Assembly (NCBI GenBank): GCA_031378345.1
Contig: JANNDY010000034.1
Location: 107,603-171,602, forward strand
Length of the DNA stretch: 64,000 nucleotides
Reading direction: 5' to 3'
From: Emticicia sp.
Lineage (GTDB): Bacteria > Bacteroidota > Bacteroidia > Cytophagales > Spirosomataceae
Positions 5,852 to 45,394 of the stretch are shown here, in pieces (positions within the stretch are counted from its first letter, which is position 1; the number at the start of each line of letters is the position of its first letter). The position numbers and the translations under genes are program-made. The notes under the pieces are model-generated. The model was given only the letters and a program-made list of their open reading frames with translations, had not been told where the DNA came from and made no database searches.

Positions 5852-6844
5852 TTAACTCGAAACTTTTGAGAGTTTAGAAAAAACTTTTACTTTCTTGAAA
5901 ACATGAGGAGCAAGCCCCAAACAGATAAAAATAAAAGCTGTAATAAACAAAGTACCTTTGTGAGCAAAAAACTGTCCTGATGCCAAAATTCCCATCACCA
6001 AAATAGTTGAAAGTGGCAATGAAAATGCTAAAACCAATACTGCCAAATTCATGTCAAAAGTTTTTCTTTCTTTGGCTAAGTTTTTATCATCTTCTTTCAT
6101 ATTGATTGTTGAAATGTGAGCAAAGGGCCAAAAACTGCACGAACTCAACGGCACTACAACTGCCAATAAAATAAGGTTTGGTGTAGTGATATTAAAGATT
6201 TTGATAACCAAAACACTAAAAAGCAAGGTAATTCCTGCCCTAAACAGCAAAATCGAGCTTACCAATTTGATTTTTCCTTCTTTGAATTGAACTGCCAAAC
6301 CAATATAAATTAGCACCAACGGAGTCATTAAGCTACTTGCACGATTGAATAATTCGGAAATAGCCGTTGGCAAAGATTTCATATTGATGCCAACCGAAAG
6401 GGAAATTATCGCCAAAAGCATAATGATATTAATTGGCTCTTTTACTAAACTTAGTAACAAACTTTTTACTTTTCCGTTGTCTTCGACTTCCTCAGCTTGA
6501 TTGTTTTGTAGGTACATTTTCATGGCTACGAAGTACAGAAGATTCAAAGCAAAAAACTTATTTCTTACATCTCCCATGGCAGCTAAAGCCAGTGATTCAT
6601 CTCCCAAAAACTCATTAATAAATGGGAAACTCGATAAACCTGGAGCTAATGAAGGCAAAAGCATCGTTAATGTCCTTCCCACCGAACTATCTTTATCAAT
6701 GCCGAAAATAGGCAAAAAATAAGGTGCTGATAAGAACATAAAAAAATTAAACGCAAGGATAAAAATAGGGTAGATGCGTAAGGAAAAACTAATTTTAATG
6801 CCCATCAAAGCAATAAATACCGTTGAAGGCAATGCTATTGACAA
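5852..6844 (-). CDS. Multi-pass membrane permease (possibly AEC/auxin-efflux-carrier-like)
   Basis: 330-aa ORF with about 10 hydrophobic segments. The family assignment is a guess. Confidence 0.35.
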   Translation of the reverse strand: MSIALPSTVFIALMGIKISFSLRIYPIFILAFNFFMFLSAPYFLPIFGIDKDSSVGRTLTMLLPSLAPGLSSFPFINEFLGDESLALAAMGDVRNKFFALNLLYFVAMKMYLQNNQAEEVEDNGKVKSLLLSLVKEPINIIMLLAIISLSVGINMKSLPTAISELFNRASSLMTPLVLIYIGLAVQFKEGKIKLVSSILLFRAGITLLFSVLVIKIFNITTPNLILLAVVVPLSSCSFWPFAHISTINMKEDDKNLAKERKTFDMNLAVLVLAFSLPLSTILVMGILASGQFFAHKGTLFITAFIFICLGLAPHVFKKVKVFSKLSKVSS

Positions 6845-7031
6845 GATAATTTCTTTGACACTATTTATTTCGGTTTTTTATTTTACTTCTGAGTGCCAAT
6901 CCTAATCCAATCTATAGTAGGAGGATAAGCGTTTTTTGGACAGCCTCAACCATAGTTTTGTTGTAAAGAAGTGGATGAATATTTGTAAAACAATGAGCAA
7001 AGAAAAATTCTATATATTATGTCAAAAAGAA

Positions 7032-7904
7032 TTATGGAACTGGAACTCCAGCACTTTCTGACCAAAGAGCAAACCAATCCTGTAATTCCATCTCTATGGT
7101 CGTTGCTTTCATTAAGTTGGTAATTCTGGTATGGTCTGCTGTACCGCAAACAGGCAAAATTCCTGATGGATGTTTTAAAATCCATGCAAGAAGTATGACG
7201 TCAACGGGAACGTTGTATTTTAACGAAAAATTTGAAGCGATTTTATTTACTCGTTGAGATTGTGCGTCATCTTTTTTGAAAACACTTCCCAATGGAGACC
7301 AACACATGGGCGTAATATTATGTGTTTGCATGTGGTCTAAACTTCCATCGAGCATTGCGTCAAAATGAGTGACAGAAAACCTAATTTGGTTATAATTGAT
7401 TTTGGTTTTCATCTCAATTAAATCTGTTTGTAGTGGTGTAAAGTTTGAAACGCCAAAATCTATAATTTTTCCGTCTTGTTTCAATTTTTCAATCGCTTCT
7501 GCAATTTCATCTACCCTCATCAACGGACTGGGACGATGCAACAAGAGTAAATCTAAATAATCAGTTTGTAAGTTTCTCAATGATTGTTCAACCGACCAAA
7601 TGATATAAGATGTGGAGTAATCGTAGTGTTTTATTGCGTTTCCTCTTTTTTCTGATTCCATTTGAATACCGCACTTAGAAATCAGTTGTATTTTGCTTCG
7701 CTCAATTTTACTTTCGTTAAAAGCCTTTCCAAAAGCCGTTTCAGTGGTATAATCTCCATAAATATCTGCATGGTCAAATGTGGTGATGTTATTTTCTAAA
7801 CAACAATTCATCAATTCAATCATCTGTTTAGTATTGCAATCTTTTCCCCAAACACCCCATGTCATAGTACCAGCAATAATCTTAGAAAATGGTGTTTTAT
7901 TCAT
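7032..7904 (-). CDS. Aldo/keto reductase family oxidoreductase
   Basis: TFDHADIYGDY, LLLHRP and a GTADHTRI-type C-terminus, typical of YdhF-like AKRs. Confidence 0.8.
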   Translation of the reverse strand: MNKTPFSKIIAGTMTWGVWGKDCNTKQMIELMNCCLENNITTFDHADIYGDYTTETAFGKAFNESKIERSKIQLISKCGIQMESEKRGNAIKHYDYSTSYIIWSVEQSLRNLQTDYLDLLLLHRPSPLMRVDEIAEAIEKLKQDGKIIDFGVSNFTPLQTDLIEMKTKINYNQIRFSVTHFDAMLDGSLDHMQTHNITPMCWSPLGSVFKKDDAQSQRVNKIASNFSLKYNVPVDVILLAWILKHPSGILPVCGTADHTRITNLMKATTIEMELQDWFALWSESAGVPVP

Positions 7905-8003
7905 GTTTTTTTATTAAAAATTATAGAAAATTTGATTTTAAGGCGGCTATTTGTTTACCACCACTGTCAAATTTATGCAAAAAATCTTTAAAATCTATTG
8001 ATT

Positions 8004-41434: not shown

Positions 41435-41549
41435 AGTTTTTTTGATTGAGGTTGAATAAAAAATATAAAATAAATTAGTGTCAAAGAAACACTTATTGAT
41501 GAAACAAATGTAGGATTTTGAAATTTATCAACCAACAAAGAGGGGATAT

Positions 41550-42236
41550 TTAAACTATGTTTTGAGAGTAATCAAGCATCAGATGATGGAGTTCAAAAAG
41601 TTTTTTGCCAATTATCGTTTGATGATTTGAAATGTAAGAAAAATCAAAGCTTTGCAAAATATTAGTTTTTGTAAGCGTAATTAATGTATTATTTCTTACC
41701 TCAATAATTTCAGTATTTGTGCCAGATTTGCTAATCAGGTTATTGATTTTATCTTTGTTCTGCTCAATATCACAAGGCTTTACTATGAATCCAATCATTC
41801 CATTTCTTCCGAGATTTGTAGGGTATTTTTCACTTATAAAGCGATGTATGCCTTCTTTTACATACTCGCTATTTAATGGACTTTCTCCATCTAATCGTTT
41901 ACATTCAAATGTAAAATAATTATTTTTTCCACCTGAAAACGACAAACCCTCTACAATTATCATAATATCTAAATATCCTACTTCTTTCCGCTTTTCAATT
42001 TTTGCAGGCTCGGCAATAAAATAAAAATTATTTATCTGCAAATCTTCTTTAATATCTGGATTTTGTAAATAATCATCAACAAGCATATTTCGGAGATAAT
42101 TTTCATCATTTTCAAATTTTGGATTTTCCGAAAGAAGGCTCTCTTGATAACAAATAATAACGGCTGATAATAGTTTTTTAAAGCTTTTTATGACATAAAA
42201 TTCACTATTACTTTTACTCAAAGGAGAAGTATTCAT
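41550..42236 (-). CDS. PD-(D/E)xK nuclease-like protein, partner of the large methyltransferase
   Basis: GYLDIMIIVEG ..(about 20 aa).. FTFECKRLDG gives D-x(n)-E-x-K spacing. Starts 16 nt after the stop of the upstream gene, same strand. Confidence 0.5.
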   Translation of the reverse strand: MNTSPLSKSNSEFYVIKSFKKLLSAVIICYQESLLSENPKFENDENYLRNMLVDDYLQNPDIKEDLQINNFYFIAEPAKIEKRKEVGYLDIMIIVEGLSFSGGKNNYFTFECKRLDGESPLNSEYVKEGIHRFISEKYPTNLGRNGMIGFIVKPCDIEQNKDKINNLISKSGTNTEIIEVRNNTLITLTKTNILQSFDFSYISNHQTIIGKKLFELHHLMLDYSQNIV

Positions 42237-42252
42237 TCTATAAAGTTGGTGT

Positions 42253-45200
42253 TTATGCTTCGATTAATTCAAGTTCTTCGGTTCTTTTAAATATGCTTTC
42301 TATGAATTCATTTAAGTCTAAGTAAGCAATTGCTTCATGCCAAACTTTATATTCATTTGGTTTAATTACATAAAATGATGAGTCATTAAATCCTTTTATA
42401 TCTTTTTGTATGTAAAGATTAGATGCTTGTTCCTCAAAACCCATACCTATAAAATGACGTAATATTTTCTCTTGGTTTGCGATTCTCTCCTTCCATTCAA
42501 TCATTTCATTAGGTTCTAATTGACTAATTACAAAATTCACAGCTATTACATCTTGTGAGTAATAAATTTCCGCATTGAAATAATTACCATCTTCTGGTTC
42601 ATAAATCGTAGAGAAATGCTTTATAAATACATTCACATACTTTTCAATGAATATTCTATCTTGTGATGATTGTAAGTTTCGATATGGCTCTTGCTCTCCC
42701 TTCCATAAAGGAATTGAAACCTTAAAGGCATAATCCAAAAGGCTTTTTTCAGTAGAATTAAGCCTGTAAAGTTGATATAATAATATATCTAATTCTTTCT
42801 CTAACGGACAAACTTCATGTTCATTAAATGTTTGATTTTTGTAATAATCTTGAATTCTATCTACATAATTTGCGATTCTGTCATCAATTATTGATGGGAA
42901 ATTAACCATTTCTTTTTGATGAATTTGTTCTCGTTCAATTCCACTTGATGAAATTGTCATCAAACTATAATAAATGAACATATTAGAATTTAAAGTCCCA
43001 ACAATACTTTTTAGGGCATTCTTATGCTCTTCAAACCCTTTTATTACCATAACTGTATCTGTAAACATCCATTCGTCTTCTGAATAAGCACTAACTGCTT
43101 GCAAAGTATCAGGTATAAAACCTTTTTTTATAAAAAGATAGGGTGGATAAAATATACGTTTATCCTTTCTATCTCTGTGAACAGTAGAAATTTGCCATGG
43201 TTCTGTATCCTCAGTATTTATATAATATCTTTTTAAAAGTTTTTTTGTATCCGTATCAAGGTATTTCCTTCCAACAAACTCAGAAATGTCATTTTCGTCA
43301 CTTCCATTAACCTGCACCCCTCTATTAGGAGGAAGCATTTCATTTTCTTCTGTAATATTTTTTATTGATTTAAAACGAGAACTTTTGAGTCTTTTTATTA
43401 AATAGAAATCTAATAAATTGCCATAAACTAATACTTTCCACAGCCAATCATAATCGGAAAAATAGCCTTGTAATACTTCTTTATAATCATATTTTTCTAT
43501 TACAAATGCTCTAAATAAATCAAAATATTTGTTAGGCTTTAGTGAAATATGTTTGACTATATTTTCAGGATTTACAGGTTTTCCAGTAAACTTGTAGAAA
43601 ATAATGCTTGCAGGACCAGTTGTATTTTTTTTGAGTCCTTTTATTTTGGGACCATTTTTTTTGAAGACTTTATCCCTTATGGCTGAAAGTTCTACTATTT
43701 GAATAATTTCGAATTTATCCAAAAAATATGTTCTAAATTTTTTGGAATCTACGTTGTATAAAATTTTACTCGTAATAATTAAAGCACAAGTAATTTCTTT
43801 ATTTGTTTCTCTAAATAAGTTACTTAAACGTAATAAAAAGGCTTGTGCTATTTCCTTGTTACCAATTATCGTATCTTTTATTTTTTCTTTTCTTGCCCTT
43901 GTTTTACAATAGTTTAAGTATTGTTTTTGATATTTTGAAACATTTCCCCAAGGTGGATTTCCCAATACAAAATCGAAATGGGTTTCAGATACTTTGGTTC
44001 TAAATAGATATTCTTGTGTGAATTTATCATCAAAAAAATCACCTTCAAAGAAATTATCTCTCAAATTAGGGAACTTAAAATCAGCAATATCTTTGGGGTC
44101 TTGGAAGTCAAGAAGCGTTATATAAATTGAAAAAATCGCTACATTGACCGCTGCGGGGTCTTTATCTACTCCAAAAATATTATCAATTACTAAATCATTG
44201 AGGTGTTTTTTTAACTCCACTCCGTTAAGTTTATTAATTGATTGAAACCTTGTAATAATTTGCCTTAGAGTTTCTACCAAAAAAATCCCAGAGCCACATG
44301 AAGGGTCTATTACTCGGCAATTATACTCGTTTTCATCTTCCTCAAAATATTTAGTAACGGTTTGTTTAACAATATATTCAGCTAAAAACAATGGTGTATA
44401 AAAAGCCTTATTTTCAGCCTGACTTTCACCCATAAAGAACTCATAAATATTACTAATGAATTCTACTGGAATTATCTGAAAATCGTAGTATTTGAATTCC
44501 TTGAAGTCCAAACGTGATTGTCCACTTCCTACCTCATTTCCTTTGAATAAGTCAAATAAAACCCCTACACATTCGGAATTAATATGCTCATCAGAAAGGT
44601 CTAAATTCTGAACAGGAAAAAGCCTTTCTTCTGCATCATCGAAGAATTTATTGTCTATAAATCTAAACCAATCATATAGATTTTCAACACTTTTACTTTC
44701 GAGCATATTCTCAAAAACATCAATATCAAATTTAGCATTTTTGAAAACAATTTCTACCTCTCTATCAATCAAATAGCGTGTAAAAATTAATCGCCCAATT
44801 AAACTATTGGCTAATTCACTTTTAATATCTATTTTTTTGAGCAACTCACGAGCATCATAAATGTTTTTTAAAAGTGTATTATCAACTTTACTTTTTGTAT
44901 TATTTATATTTTCATTGTAATTATTCCACGTTTTTCCAGAAATCAATTCCCAAAAATTGAAATCATCTTTTTTGTTCTCATTAGCTAACACATTGAGATA
45001 TCCGTCTTTACTATCAAATGAGAATCCGTTTAAAATTTGGAGTTCATCAGGCAGAATAATAAATACGACAGGTGTCTTACCAAAATTCCAACAATCCTTA
45101 TGAATTTTTCTGATAGTTTGATTATCTCTACTTTCTACTTCAAAAAAAAGCACAAAGCTATTTTCTGAAAAATAGTATTTGGAAGAGTTTATGAAAAAGG

Positions 45201-45357
45201 CTGAGGGTTTAATTTTTTTTAAAACTTCTTCAACCTTGACAGAAAATTTATTTTTCCAAGTTTTGGGTTGTTTATAAAAATATAGCCCGTTTTTCTCTAA
45301 GCCTTCATCAGAGATAAAGTCCAGTTTTCTAAGCAACTGATTAAGAGAGCCTTGCAT
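42253..45357 (-). CDS. Large (1034 aa) gamma-class N6-adenine DNA methyltransferase-domain protein (Eco57I/MmeI-like architecture)
   Basis: FYTPLFLAEYIV, motif I RVIDPSCGSGIFLVE, motif IV FDFVLGNPPWG. About 300 aa N-terminal and 500 aa C-terminal extensions. Confidence 0.8.
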   Translation of the reverse strand: MQGSLNQLLRKLDFISDEGLEKNGLYFYKQPKTWKNKFSVKVEEVLKKIKPSAFFINSSKYYFSENSFVLFFEVESRDNQTIRKIHKDCWNFGKTPVVFIILPDELQILNGFSFDSKDGYLNVLANENKKDDFNFWELISGKTWNNYNENINNTKSKVDNTLLKNIYDARELLKKIDIKSELANSLIGRLIFTRYLIDREVEIVFKNAKFDIDVFENMLESKSVENLYDWFRFIDNKFFDDAEERLFPVQNLDLSDEHINSECVGVLFDLFKGNEVGSGQSRLDFKEFKYYDFQIIPVEFISNIYEFFMGESQAENKAFYTPLFLAEYIVKQTVTKYFEEDENEYNCRVIDPSCGSGIFLVETLRQIITRFQSINKLNGVELKKHLNDLVIDNIFGVDKDPAAVNVAIFSIYITLLDFQDPKDIADFKFPNLRDNFFEGDFFDDKFTQEYLFRTKVSETHFDFVLGNPPWGNVSKYQKQYLNYCKTRARKEKIKDTIIGNKEIAQAFLLRLSNLFRETNKEITCALIITSKILYNVDSKKFRTYFLDKFEIIQIVELSAIRDKVFKKNGPKIKGLKKNTTGPASIIFYKFTGKPVNPENIVKHISLKPNKYFDLFRAFVIEKYDYKEVLQGYFSDYDWLWKVLVYGNLLDFYLIKRLKSSRFKSIKNITEENEMLPPNRGVQVNGSDENDISEFVGRKYLDTDTKKLLKRYYINTEDTEPWQISTVHRDRKDKRIFYPPYLFIKKGFIPDTLQAVSAYSEDEWMFTDTVMVIKGFEEHKNALKSIVGTLNSNMFIYYSLMTISSSGIEREQIHQKEMVNFPSIIDDRIANYVDRIQDYYKNQTFNEHEVCPLEKELDILLYQLYRLNSTEKSLLDYAFKVSIPLWKGEQEPYRNLQSSQDRIFIEKYVNVFIKHFSTIYEPEDGNYFNAEIYYSQDVIAVNFVISQLEPNEMIEWKERIANQEKILRHFIGMGFEEQASNLYIQKDIKGFNDSSFYVIKPNEYKVWHEAIAYLDLNEFIESIFKRTEELELIEA

Positions 45358-45386: not shown

Positions 45387-45394
45387 CAAATATA
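45387..45394 (-). promoter_or_regulatory. Bacteroidota -7 promoter box for the methyltransferase operon
   Basis: caaatata on the plus strand = tatatttg on the minus strand, 30 nt upstream of the ATG at 45357. Confidence 0.35.

Follow-up and report, generated by a model that had tools for sequence, protein, structure and literature searches.

A linked methyltransferase-specificity protein and small putative PD-(D/E)xK nuclease in Emticicia sp., a probable split and motor-less relative of the Type IIG/IIL restriction-modification enzymes

In the 64,000-nucleotide stretch of Emticicia sp. analysed here (assembly GCA_031378345.1, contig JANNDY010000034.1, positions 107,603 to 171,602; hereafter the window), a pair of adjacent genes was found which is probably a split, motor-less relative of the Type IIG/IIL restriction-modification (RM) enzymes, with a fused methyltransferase-specificity (M.S) protein giving the specificity and a docked PD-(D/E)xK subunit cutting the DNA. 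The pair consists of a large gene (42253..45357) of 1034 amino acids (aa) followed by a small gene (41550..42236) of 228 aa, the putative restriction (R) subunit. As described in the initial annotation, the two open reading frames (ORFs) are co-directional and are separated by a spacer of 16 nt (42237..42252); they and all the window features located below lie on the minus strand. It had been proposed there that cleavage was outsourced to the separate nuclease while the fused nuclease head of the large protein was altered. This remains the best-supported reading, carried by the co-conservation of the pair, the invariant triad of the small protein and the exchange of target recognition domains (TRDs), whereas three parts of it, namely the altered E-x-E motif, the likeness of the head to that of MmeI and the orphan status of the module, were not supported. 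Domain content, invariance of the catalytic residues, a head without a conserved triad, obligate linkage, TRD mosaicism and horizontal mobility were all observed by computation.

The large protein was found to contain an N-terminal head, a helical spacer, a gamma-class N6-adenine methyltransferase (MTase), a TRD, C-terminal helices and a conserved tail, in that order. The MTase catalytic domain (residues 301-570, 43648..44457), placed by Pfam domains and by motifs I and IV, contained motif X FYTPLFLAEYIV (residues 319-330, 44368-44403), read in the translation, followed by motif I D351-P-S-C-G-S-G357 (DPSCGSG, 44287-44307) and motif IV N467-P-P-W470 (NPPW, 43948-43959). Among 71 non-redundant systems, to which the conservation counts refer unless another number is stated, D351-P-x-C-G-S-G and G466-N-P-P-W were kept in 71/71, with A or S at position 353. 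The Pfam families Eco57I (3e-17), N6_Mtase (1.6e-13) and MmeI_Mtase (1.3e-8) matched the same protein and agreed with the annotated gamma-class N6-adenine MTase core.

The PADLOC profile PDLC03603 (REase_MTase_IIG), which was built from REBASE Type IIG entries, matched the large protein at E = 9.7e-170 over residues 19-1024 (profile positions 12-1011 of 1016). More than 2,900 database proteins matched it at E <= 1e-10, and the best 120 matches listed contained more than 100 full-length relatives with about 40% identity, so that the module cannot be called an orphan. In its AlphaFold2 (AF2) model (mean predicted local distance difference test, pLDDT, 82; predicted template modelling score 0.82), the Foldseek neighbours were CamA (2.8e-18), BrxX (1.1e-17), BpuSI (2.3e-13), MmeI (8.9e-13) and DrdV (9.3e-12); the alignments spanned about 1,000 columns for BrxX, BpuSI and DrdV, and 875 for MmeI. 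About 450 residues were present beyond those of the stand-alone MTase-TRD enzymes of the CamA, M.BseCI and TaqI type. In 40 members of the family, MmeI_Mtase was found in 40/40 and no match at E <= 1 was found to MmeI_N, MmeI_hel, MmeI_TRD or MmeI_C; the PDB profile match to MmeI was limited to the region of motifs I to IV.

The small protein was found to contain conserved E45 (42102-42104; 70/71), E76 (42009-42011; 71/71) and D90 (41967-41969; 71/71), followed by the presence of E111-C-K113 (41898-41906; 71/71 for each residue). The residues E76, D90, E111, C112 and K113 were invariant also in a separate set of 51 small proteins, and the annotated D-x(about 20)-E-x-K pattern is thus present as D90, E111 and K113 and invariant in both sets. 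R132 was invariant as well in the 71 sequences. The middle residue of the ExK element was an invariant cysteine (C112, 71/71), and S203, H205 and H218 were invariant in the C-terminal sheet. The AF2 model (pLDDT 93) contained the elements in the order helix (E45), strand, strand (D90), strand (E111-x-K113), helix and strand, which is the canonical order of the PD-(D/E)xK fold; D90 stood ahead of strand 91-95 and E111 and K113 within strand 107-115, followed by helix 119-134 and strand 144-151. A match to Pfam PDDEXK_9 at E <= 1 was found in 27/51 relatives (best 1.7e-5). The motif, the element order and these matches of the relatives suggest that the small protein is a putative PD-(D/E)xK-type nuclease, as had been annotated, although structural comparison added no neighbour to them. 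The window protein itself was matched by neither PDDEXK_9 nor any other entry of Pfam, NCBIfam, PADLOC or PHROGs, none of the 51 relatives was recognised by PADLOC or NCBIfam, and the family members checked were labelled "hypothetical protein" in public sources. The family was found to contain at least 2,131 representative clusters at 50% identity (E <= 1e-3), the best 150 representatives being 124-285 aa each. No ATPase or helicase domain was found in the 228-aa protein.

The N-terminal head of the large protein (residues 1-125, 44983..45357) was found to be family-specific and without a conserved catalytic triad. It contained conserved F71, W90, N91, N110 and G111 (71/71 each) and P51 (70/71). 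Position 52 was occupied by D in 44/71 and by S in the window protein, and position 73 by E in 31/71 and D in 25/71 (E or D in 56/71); no conserved lysine was found in the head across the 71 systems. The annotated E-x-E is present as E73-V-E75 in FVLFFEVESRD (45133..45141), but residues 74-77 are an insertion of the sub-clade of the window, gapped in 32/40 and 69/71 homologs of two sets, and the element is a clade-specific insertion rather than an altered catalytic motif of the family. The annotated resemblance to the nuclease head of MmeI was not recovered, since MmeI_N matched 0/40 members in Pfam and the profile searches gave no match. No nuclease Pfam family was found in the large protein of the 40 members, and the head-only profile gave at most chance-level matches to PDB sequences and Pfam. 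Chance-level PDB and Pfam matches of the head and tail profiles, such as CbpE (E = 0.008), were discounted. Neither head nor tail was homologous to the small protein (hhalign probability below 3%). By sequence conservation, Pfam and PDB profiles, the endonuclease catalytic domain that a Type IIG enzyme carries in its MTase chain was not found here. The head may be the remnant of a nuclease domain, a docking surface for the small subunit, or both.

The TRD (residues 571-830, 42868..43647) was placed by a TaqI_C match and by its variability. Pfam TaqI_C covered residues 709-821 at E = 0.0087 in the window protein, which is below the Pfam cut-off, and matched 12/40 homologs at E <= 1 (best 7.9e-8). 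An MTase and a TRD were thus found in one chain, as in Type IIG, by the motifs, by Pfam and by Foldseek to CamA, TaqI and M.BseCI. The variable core of the TRD (about residues 661-830, 42868-43377), delimited by pairwise identity, has the appearance of a swappable cassette, and the TRD together with the C-terminal helices that follow it was the least conserved region of the large protein. The C-terminal tail (residues 921-1034, 42256..42597) was found to be conserved over its last ~70 residues and is a candidate dock for the nuclease. It contained the motif QKDxxGF...FYxxKPN...WH...D..E (residues 984-1017, 42307-42408) with conserved D986, F995, P1000, N1001 and D1014 (71/71), G989, K999 and W1006 (70/71), Q984, K985, Y996 and H1007 (69/71) and E1017 (64/71). 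In the AF2 model D986, K999, D1014 and E1017 stood on a beta-hairpin plus a helix. The tail-only profile had no credible match in Pfam or PDB, and the motif remained linked to the small gene across the TRD exchanges described below.

The linkage of the two genes was checked from either side. A genome scan with the small-protein profile gave 211 species-level loci, 80 of which were fetched; the large gene was found directly upstream on the same strand in 78/80, and the remaining two ended at a contig edge, so that the linkage held in 78/78 testable loci. In the converse scan, of metagenomes, the large-protein profile led to 65 informative loci, and the small gene lay directly downstream in 64 of them. 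A gene of 208-235 aa stood directly 3′ of 4/4 individually checked large homologs and was homologous to the small protein by tblastn, and among four divergent small homologs (30-38% identity) three directly followed an MTase of 967-999 aa of the same family, the fourth lying at a contig end. Co-occurrence of the pair across genomes, on which the annotated module depended, is thereby established. In 73 other pairs the genes mostly overlapped by 1-11 nt (most often by 4 or 8 nt), instead of the 16-nt gap of the window pair; from these overlaps, the expression of the two genes appears to be coupled. Apparent natural fusions in Prevotella (L043 and L047, ORFs of 1,232-1,239 aa) were rejected, a stop at 7986-7988 being followed by an in-frame restart at 7992.

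The pair was found in at least eight phyla, its carriers belonging to Bacteroidota, Spirochaetota, Acidobacteriota, Desulfobacterota, Planctomycetota, Cloacimonadota, Patescibacteria, Gammaproteobacteria and Aliarcobacter. Integrases, resolvases, other RM genes and toxin genes were frequent beside it, and the closest relatives of the window system (79-82% identity) stood in another genomic context. The cassette is horizontally mobile and lies in a mobile defence-island context with low guanine-plus-cytosine (GC) content. No relatives of the small protein were found in IMG/VR viral contigs.

The exchange of the TRD was surveyed in 116 systems, which gave 39 pairs with N-terminal 400 residues at least 80% identical. 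The TRD core was found to be replaced (29-50% identity, the family background being 33%) in 19 of the 39 pairs, in which the nuclease was 59-95% and the tail 72-98% identical. The nucleases of L059, from Winogradskyella algicola IMCC33238, and L080, from an Algibacter sp., were 96% identical and their TRD cores 40% identical; per 40-residue window of the large protein, identity was 92-100% over residues 1-440 and 18-72% over residues 441-960, followed by 70-92% in the last ~70 residues. The same mosaic was found in L027 and L029, L034 and L076, and L016 and L038. Between the window system and its closest relative (L091), identity was 92-98% in the head, 30-45% over residues 681-800 and 82-98% from about 841 to about 1000. 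The reciprocal case, a similar TRD on a divergent backbone, was found once. Exchange of specificity cassettes is a known pattern in Type I hsdS, in Type III mod and in the MmeI family, and the mosaic would be an exchange of this kind, the replaced TRD suggesting a changed specificity. The small nuclease is unlikely to read DNA sequence, because it is kept while the TRD of its partner is replaced. None of the carrier strains that could be named was present among the methylomes of Blow et al. 2016, so that no recognition motif was tied to any member.

The divergence of the small protein was also compared with that of each part of the large protein by mirror-tree partial correlation, controlled for the MTase domain, in the genome set and then in the metagenome set. 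The partial r was 0.39 and 0.43 for the head, 0.35 and 0.40 for the helical spacer and 0.46 and 0.26 for the tail. In three loci the large gene was found destroyed while the small gene next to it was intact. In a metagenome-assembled genome (MAG) of Pyrinomonadaceae (L032:6042-8600, on an 880-kb contig), the large gene had lost its MTase core and survived as three pieces lying in three different frames, and the small gene was full-length with an intact D...ECK. In Ca. Brocadia (L067), the large gene was frameshifted and the small gene intact. In L058 (5792-7573), the large gene was split by an opposite-strand ORF of 469 aa (6035-7444), which separated residues ~1-900 from a tail ORF of 93 aa, and the small gene 3′ of it was intact. 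This insertion was considered as a TRD shufflon and set aside, the opposite-strand ORF being transposase-like. The state with a decayed large gene and an intact small gene would be easier to tolerate if the nuclease depends on the large protein.

The following mechanism would fit these observations. The large protein would be the M.S subunit, whose MTase and fused TaqI_C-like TRD read and methylate a short motif, marking self DNA. Its head would occupy the position of the nuclease of MmeI, BpuSI and DrdV, minus a conserved active site, and the active site would be supplied in trans by the 228-aa PD-(D/E)xK protein, translated from the shared transcript, in most cases with a start codon that overlaps the large gene. 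The R subunit, having no sequence specificity of its own, would dock on the head, the helical spacer and/or the last ~70 residues of the large protein, and would cut near unmethylated recognition sites. A double-strand break from a single active site may be reached by a dimer of the small subunit or, in the manner of MmeI, through two sites acting in trans; alternatively, the enzyme may only nick. Since specificity would be confined to the TRD cassette, recombination of the TRD could create new specificities with the same nuclease retained. Complex formation, the cleavage of DNA and its position, a dependence on S-adenosylmethionine and a role against phages or plasmids are all expected from this mechanism. 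The chances are about even that the pair represents an unrecognised and widespread RM architecture, a fused M.S protein with a stand-alone, motor-less R subunit of borrowed specificity, so that one nuclease serves many TRD cassettes.

Several points weigh against the split, motor-less RM system. The physical complex of the two proteins is inferred, and no large-small fusion protein was found, including among the best 150 small-family representatives. Foldseek with the small-protein model gave no significant neighbour (best E = 0.057 in PDB and 0.012 in BFVD), and the assignment as a nuclease is motif- and profile-based because a confident model had no structural neighbour in either database. 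The top matches, PTP1B and DOT1, were regarded as noise. A second active site formed in the large protein by the charged tail residues D986, K999, D1014 and E1017 is possible. The mosaicism of the TRD is no proof of changed specificity, the swapped TRDs being as divergent as the family background, and the argument from the swaps would fail if every member recognised one sequence. The mirror-tree partial r of the TRD was 0.01 in the genome set and 0.32 in the metagenome set, so that its decoupling was only partly replicated; the mirror-tree is taken as supportive only because the TRD value was not reproduced. The decayed loci came from MAGs, in which frameshifts can be assembly errors. No description of an M.S protein with a separate motor-less R subunit was found in the literature; REBASE was not covered, and a characterised member may exist.

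Three other explanations were weighed against the same evidence. The pair may be an ordinary Type II pair, in which the small protein acts by itself as a Type IIP or IIS restriction endonuclease (REase) with its own sequence specificity, perhaps as a homodimer, the large protein is only its cognate MTase and the family is a set of isoschizomers. The usual size range of Type IIP REases includes 228 aa, the order of M followed by R and the tight linkage are typical of such pairs too, the invariant polar residues R132, S203, H205 and H218 could read DNA under a shared specificity, and the TRD value of 0.32 in the metagenome set would be expected. It is nevertheless an unlikely explanation. Near-identical nucleases were found with TRD cores of background identity in the 19 of 39 pairs, with breakpoints that repeatedly bracket the TRD. 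Conservation in the large protein is lowest in the TRD and the adjoining C-terminal helices, whereas under a fixed specificity the reverse would be expected. If the large protein were a plain MTase, the ~450 additional residues, conserved and covarying with the nuclease, would not be needed; an intact R gene beside a destroyed M gene (L032) should kill the cell if the REase were autonomous, and no PADLOC REase model recognised any of the 51 small proteins.

The large protein may instead be a true single-chain Type IIG enzyme with a non-canonical site in its head or tail, the small protein being an accessory, such as a second-strand nickase of the heterodimeric BtsI/BbvCI type, or a passenger. 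The full-length match to PDLC03603 and the global structural alignment with BpuSI, MmeI and DrdV fit this explanation, as do the partial 'PD...E' of the head (P51 70/71, D52 44/71, E or D at 73 in 56/71) and the tail residues D986 and D1014 (71/71), K999 (70/71) and E1017 (64/71). Required catalytic residues should be near-invariant, and those of the head are not, the window protein having S52; head and tail match no nuclease family or solved nuclease in sequence profiles, and the conserved tail residues appear to lie off the strands expected for a PD-(D/E)xK site. Labels of 'Type IIG' given by similarity include non-nucleases such as PglX homologs (PMC12707154), and a passenger nuclease would not be kept in 142/143 testable loci; a single-chain enzyme is accordingly rated as quite improbable. 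The pair may also be a non-cleaving module, either BREX-like (bacteriophage exclusion) or epigenetic, with the small protein in repair, regulation or a toxin role, or an addiction module. The alignment with BrxX/PglX over about 1,000 columns, the weak PglX profile matches and the lack of a structural match between the small protein and known nucleases would agree with it. With no PglZ, BrxC, BrxL or other gene of BREX or of DISARM (defence island system associated with restriction-modification) in the window flanks or the individually inspected loci, an NCBIfam PglX score of 53.5 against a cut-off of 400 bits, a defence-island context, and an invariant D...ExK with PDDEXK_9 matches that point to a working phosphodiesterase, this explanation is very improbable. 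The split enzyme with its docked nuclease is the reading retained.

The GC content of the two-gene pair was 0.290 compared with 0.360 ± 0.023 in the window, and of 301 sliding windows of 3.8 kb just 3 had a lower value, in line with the annotated AT-richness. The flanks were found to contain a ThuA gene (Pfam, 1.8e-71) and two AhpC/redoxin genes, so that the pair is indeed wedged between housekeeping genes, and no S subunit, helicase or BREX/DISARM gene was found by Pfam across 37.3-49.2 kb of the window, as had also been noted. The promoter-like motif TATATTTG of the Bacteroidota -7 type (45387..45394) was found 29 nt upstream of the ATG of the large gene, where the initial annotation had placed a promoter of the pair's own; the motif is present, but TANNTTTG occurred 117 times in the window against 97 ± 11 by chance, and with this near-chance frequency TATATTTG as a dedicated promoter is suggestive only and carries no weight alone. 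TAnnTTTG was accordingly dropped as proof of a dedicated promoter. A second TAnnTTTG motif, TACATTTG (41505-41512), was found ~70 nt upstream of the ThuA start (41434), and because of it the ThuA gene may have its own promoter, with no read-through from the pair. No terminator-like site was found 3′ of the small gene.

Further genes were found beside the pair in other genomes. In Pedobacter suwonensis (L082:8719-13015), the pair was followed by a PLDc_2 gene and then by a convergent second Type IIG-like gene of more than 1,168 aa with DUF7149, DUF7814 and Eco57I, an island with two different large MTase-type systems. A Type I hsdM-hsdS-hsdR set was present 3′ of a divergent small homolog (L087:1355-6018), with two PDDEXK_3 genes and one Bro-N gene interleaved. 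In Aureispira and Fibrella, the pair was immediately preceded by tyrosine-integrase genes (L085:3943-4848 and L081:2856-4118), and serine-resolvase genes immediately followed it in two metagenome contigs (L088:5462-6061 and L089:5866-6462).

The PADLOC Type IIG profile matches the large gene alone, and under its label a nuclease would be expected in that chain, for which the sequence gives no support. If the split system is real, censuses of defence systems count the family as single-chain Type IIG and miss the real nuclease. An M.S and R split with no ATP motor would fill a gap between Type IIG (R, M and S fused), Type IIB (RM and S) and Type III (M.S and R with a motor), and would bear on models of the evolution of RM types by fusion and fission. 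If one nuclease serves many TRD alleles, this would be a modular route to new specificities, as in the MmeI family. A separate nuclease gene could be titrated or mutated apart from the MTase, for example for nickases, and, should the conserved head and tail prove to be its docking sites, the family would offer a natural modular scaffold on which restriction enzymes could be reprogrammed. The systems are likely barriers to transformation in Bacteroidota and other carriers.

Among known systems, the Type IIG/IIL enzymes (MmeI, DrdV, BpuSI and the Eco57I family) resemble the large protein in a gamma-class MTase and C-terminal TRD placed after a head and a helical spacer. The full-length match to the PADLOC profile PDLC03603, which places it within a REBASE-derived Type IIG family, the Foldseek alignments over 875-1005 columns, the Eco57I and MmeI_Mtase matches and the modular TRD are shared as well. 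MmeI_Mtase alone was found among the domain families of MmeI, and the domain set of Type IIL is thus incomplete. In those enzymes the catalytic PD-(D/E)xK domain is N-terminal in the same chain, as in BpuSI with its nuclease motif PD-x15-ExK in the N-terminal domain of a single chain (PMC3185434), whereas here it is encoded by a separate, obligately linked gene and the head, without a conserved triad, matches neither MmeI_N nor any nuclease family.

CamA, M.BseCI and M.TaqI gave the best matches to residues ~276-720 (hmmsearch 7.8e-11, Foldseek 2.8e-18) but are enzymes of 420-580 aa without the head, helical spacer, C-terminal helices and tail, and CamA is an orphan MTase without a nuclease partner. 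PglX/BrxX of BREX shares the four-part architecture (Foldseek E = 1.1e-17, 1,001 columns) and is likewise a large MTase-TRD protein without its own nuclease, which works only with partners. PglX homologs were 'formerly listed as Type IIG' in REBASE (PMC12707154), and for that reason a Type IIG label given by similarity is no proof of a built-in nuclease; the N- and C-terminal domains of BrxX have been reported as unique to BREX (PMC11842806). Here no BREX partner genes are present, the partner is the small nuclease, and NCBIfam BREX_2_MTaseX scored 53.5 bits, below its cut-off of 400. In a classical Type II system R and TRD would change together, which was not the case in 19/39 pairs, where the change of specificity is itself read from the replaced TRD.

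Type III systems (Mod and Res, e.g. EcoP15I) are similar in that an MTase-TRD subunit lends specificity to a separate nuclease subunit, in the order of a mod-like gene ahead of a res-like gene and in the exchange of TRD alleles. Type III Mod is a beta-class MTase, whereas the large protein here is gamma-class, of about 1,000 aa and Type IIG-like. Type III Res contains a superfamily-2 helicase/ATPase before the nuclease, and cleavage needs long-range communication (PMC4490356), whereas the 228-aa protein contains no such motor and no helicase gene is nearby, which sets the pair outside Type III. The Type IIB enzymes BcgI and BsaXI are, like this pair, related to Type IIG, motor-less and split over at least two polypeptides. 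In them R and M are fused and S, with the TRDs, is a separate subunit (PMC3592470, PMC11997821), and the split found here is the reverse, with M and S fused and R encoded separately.

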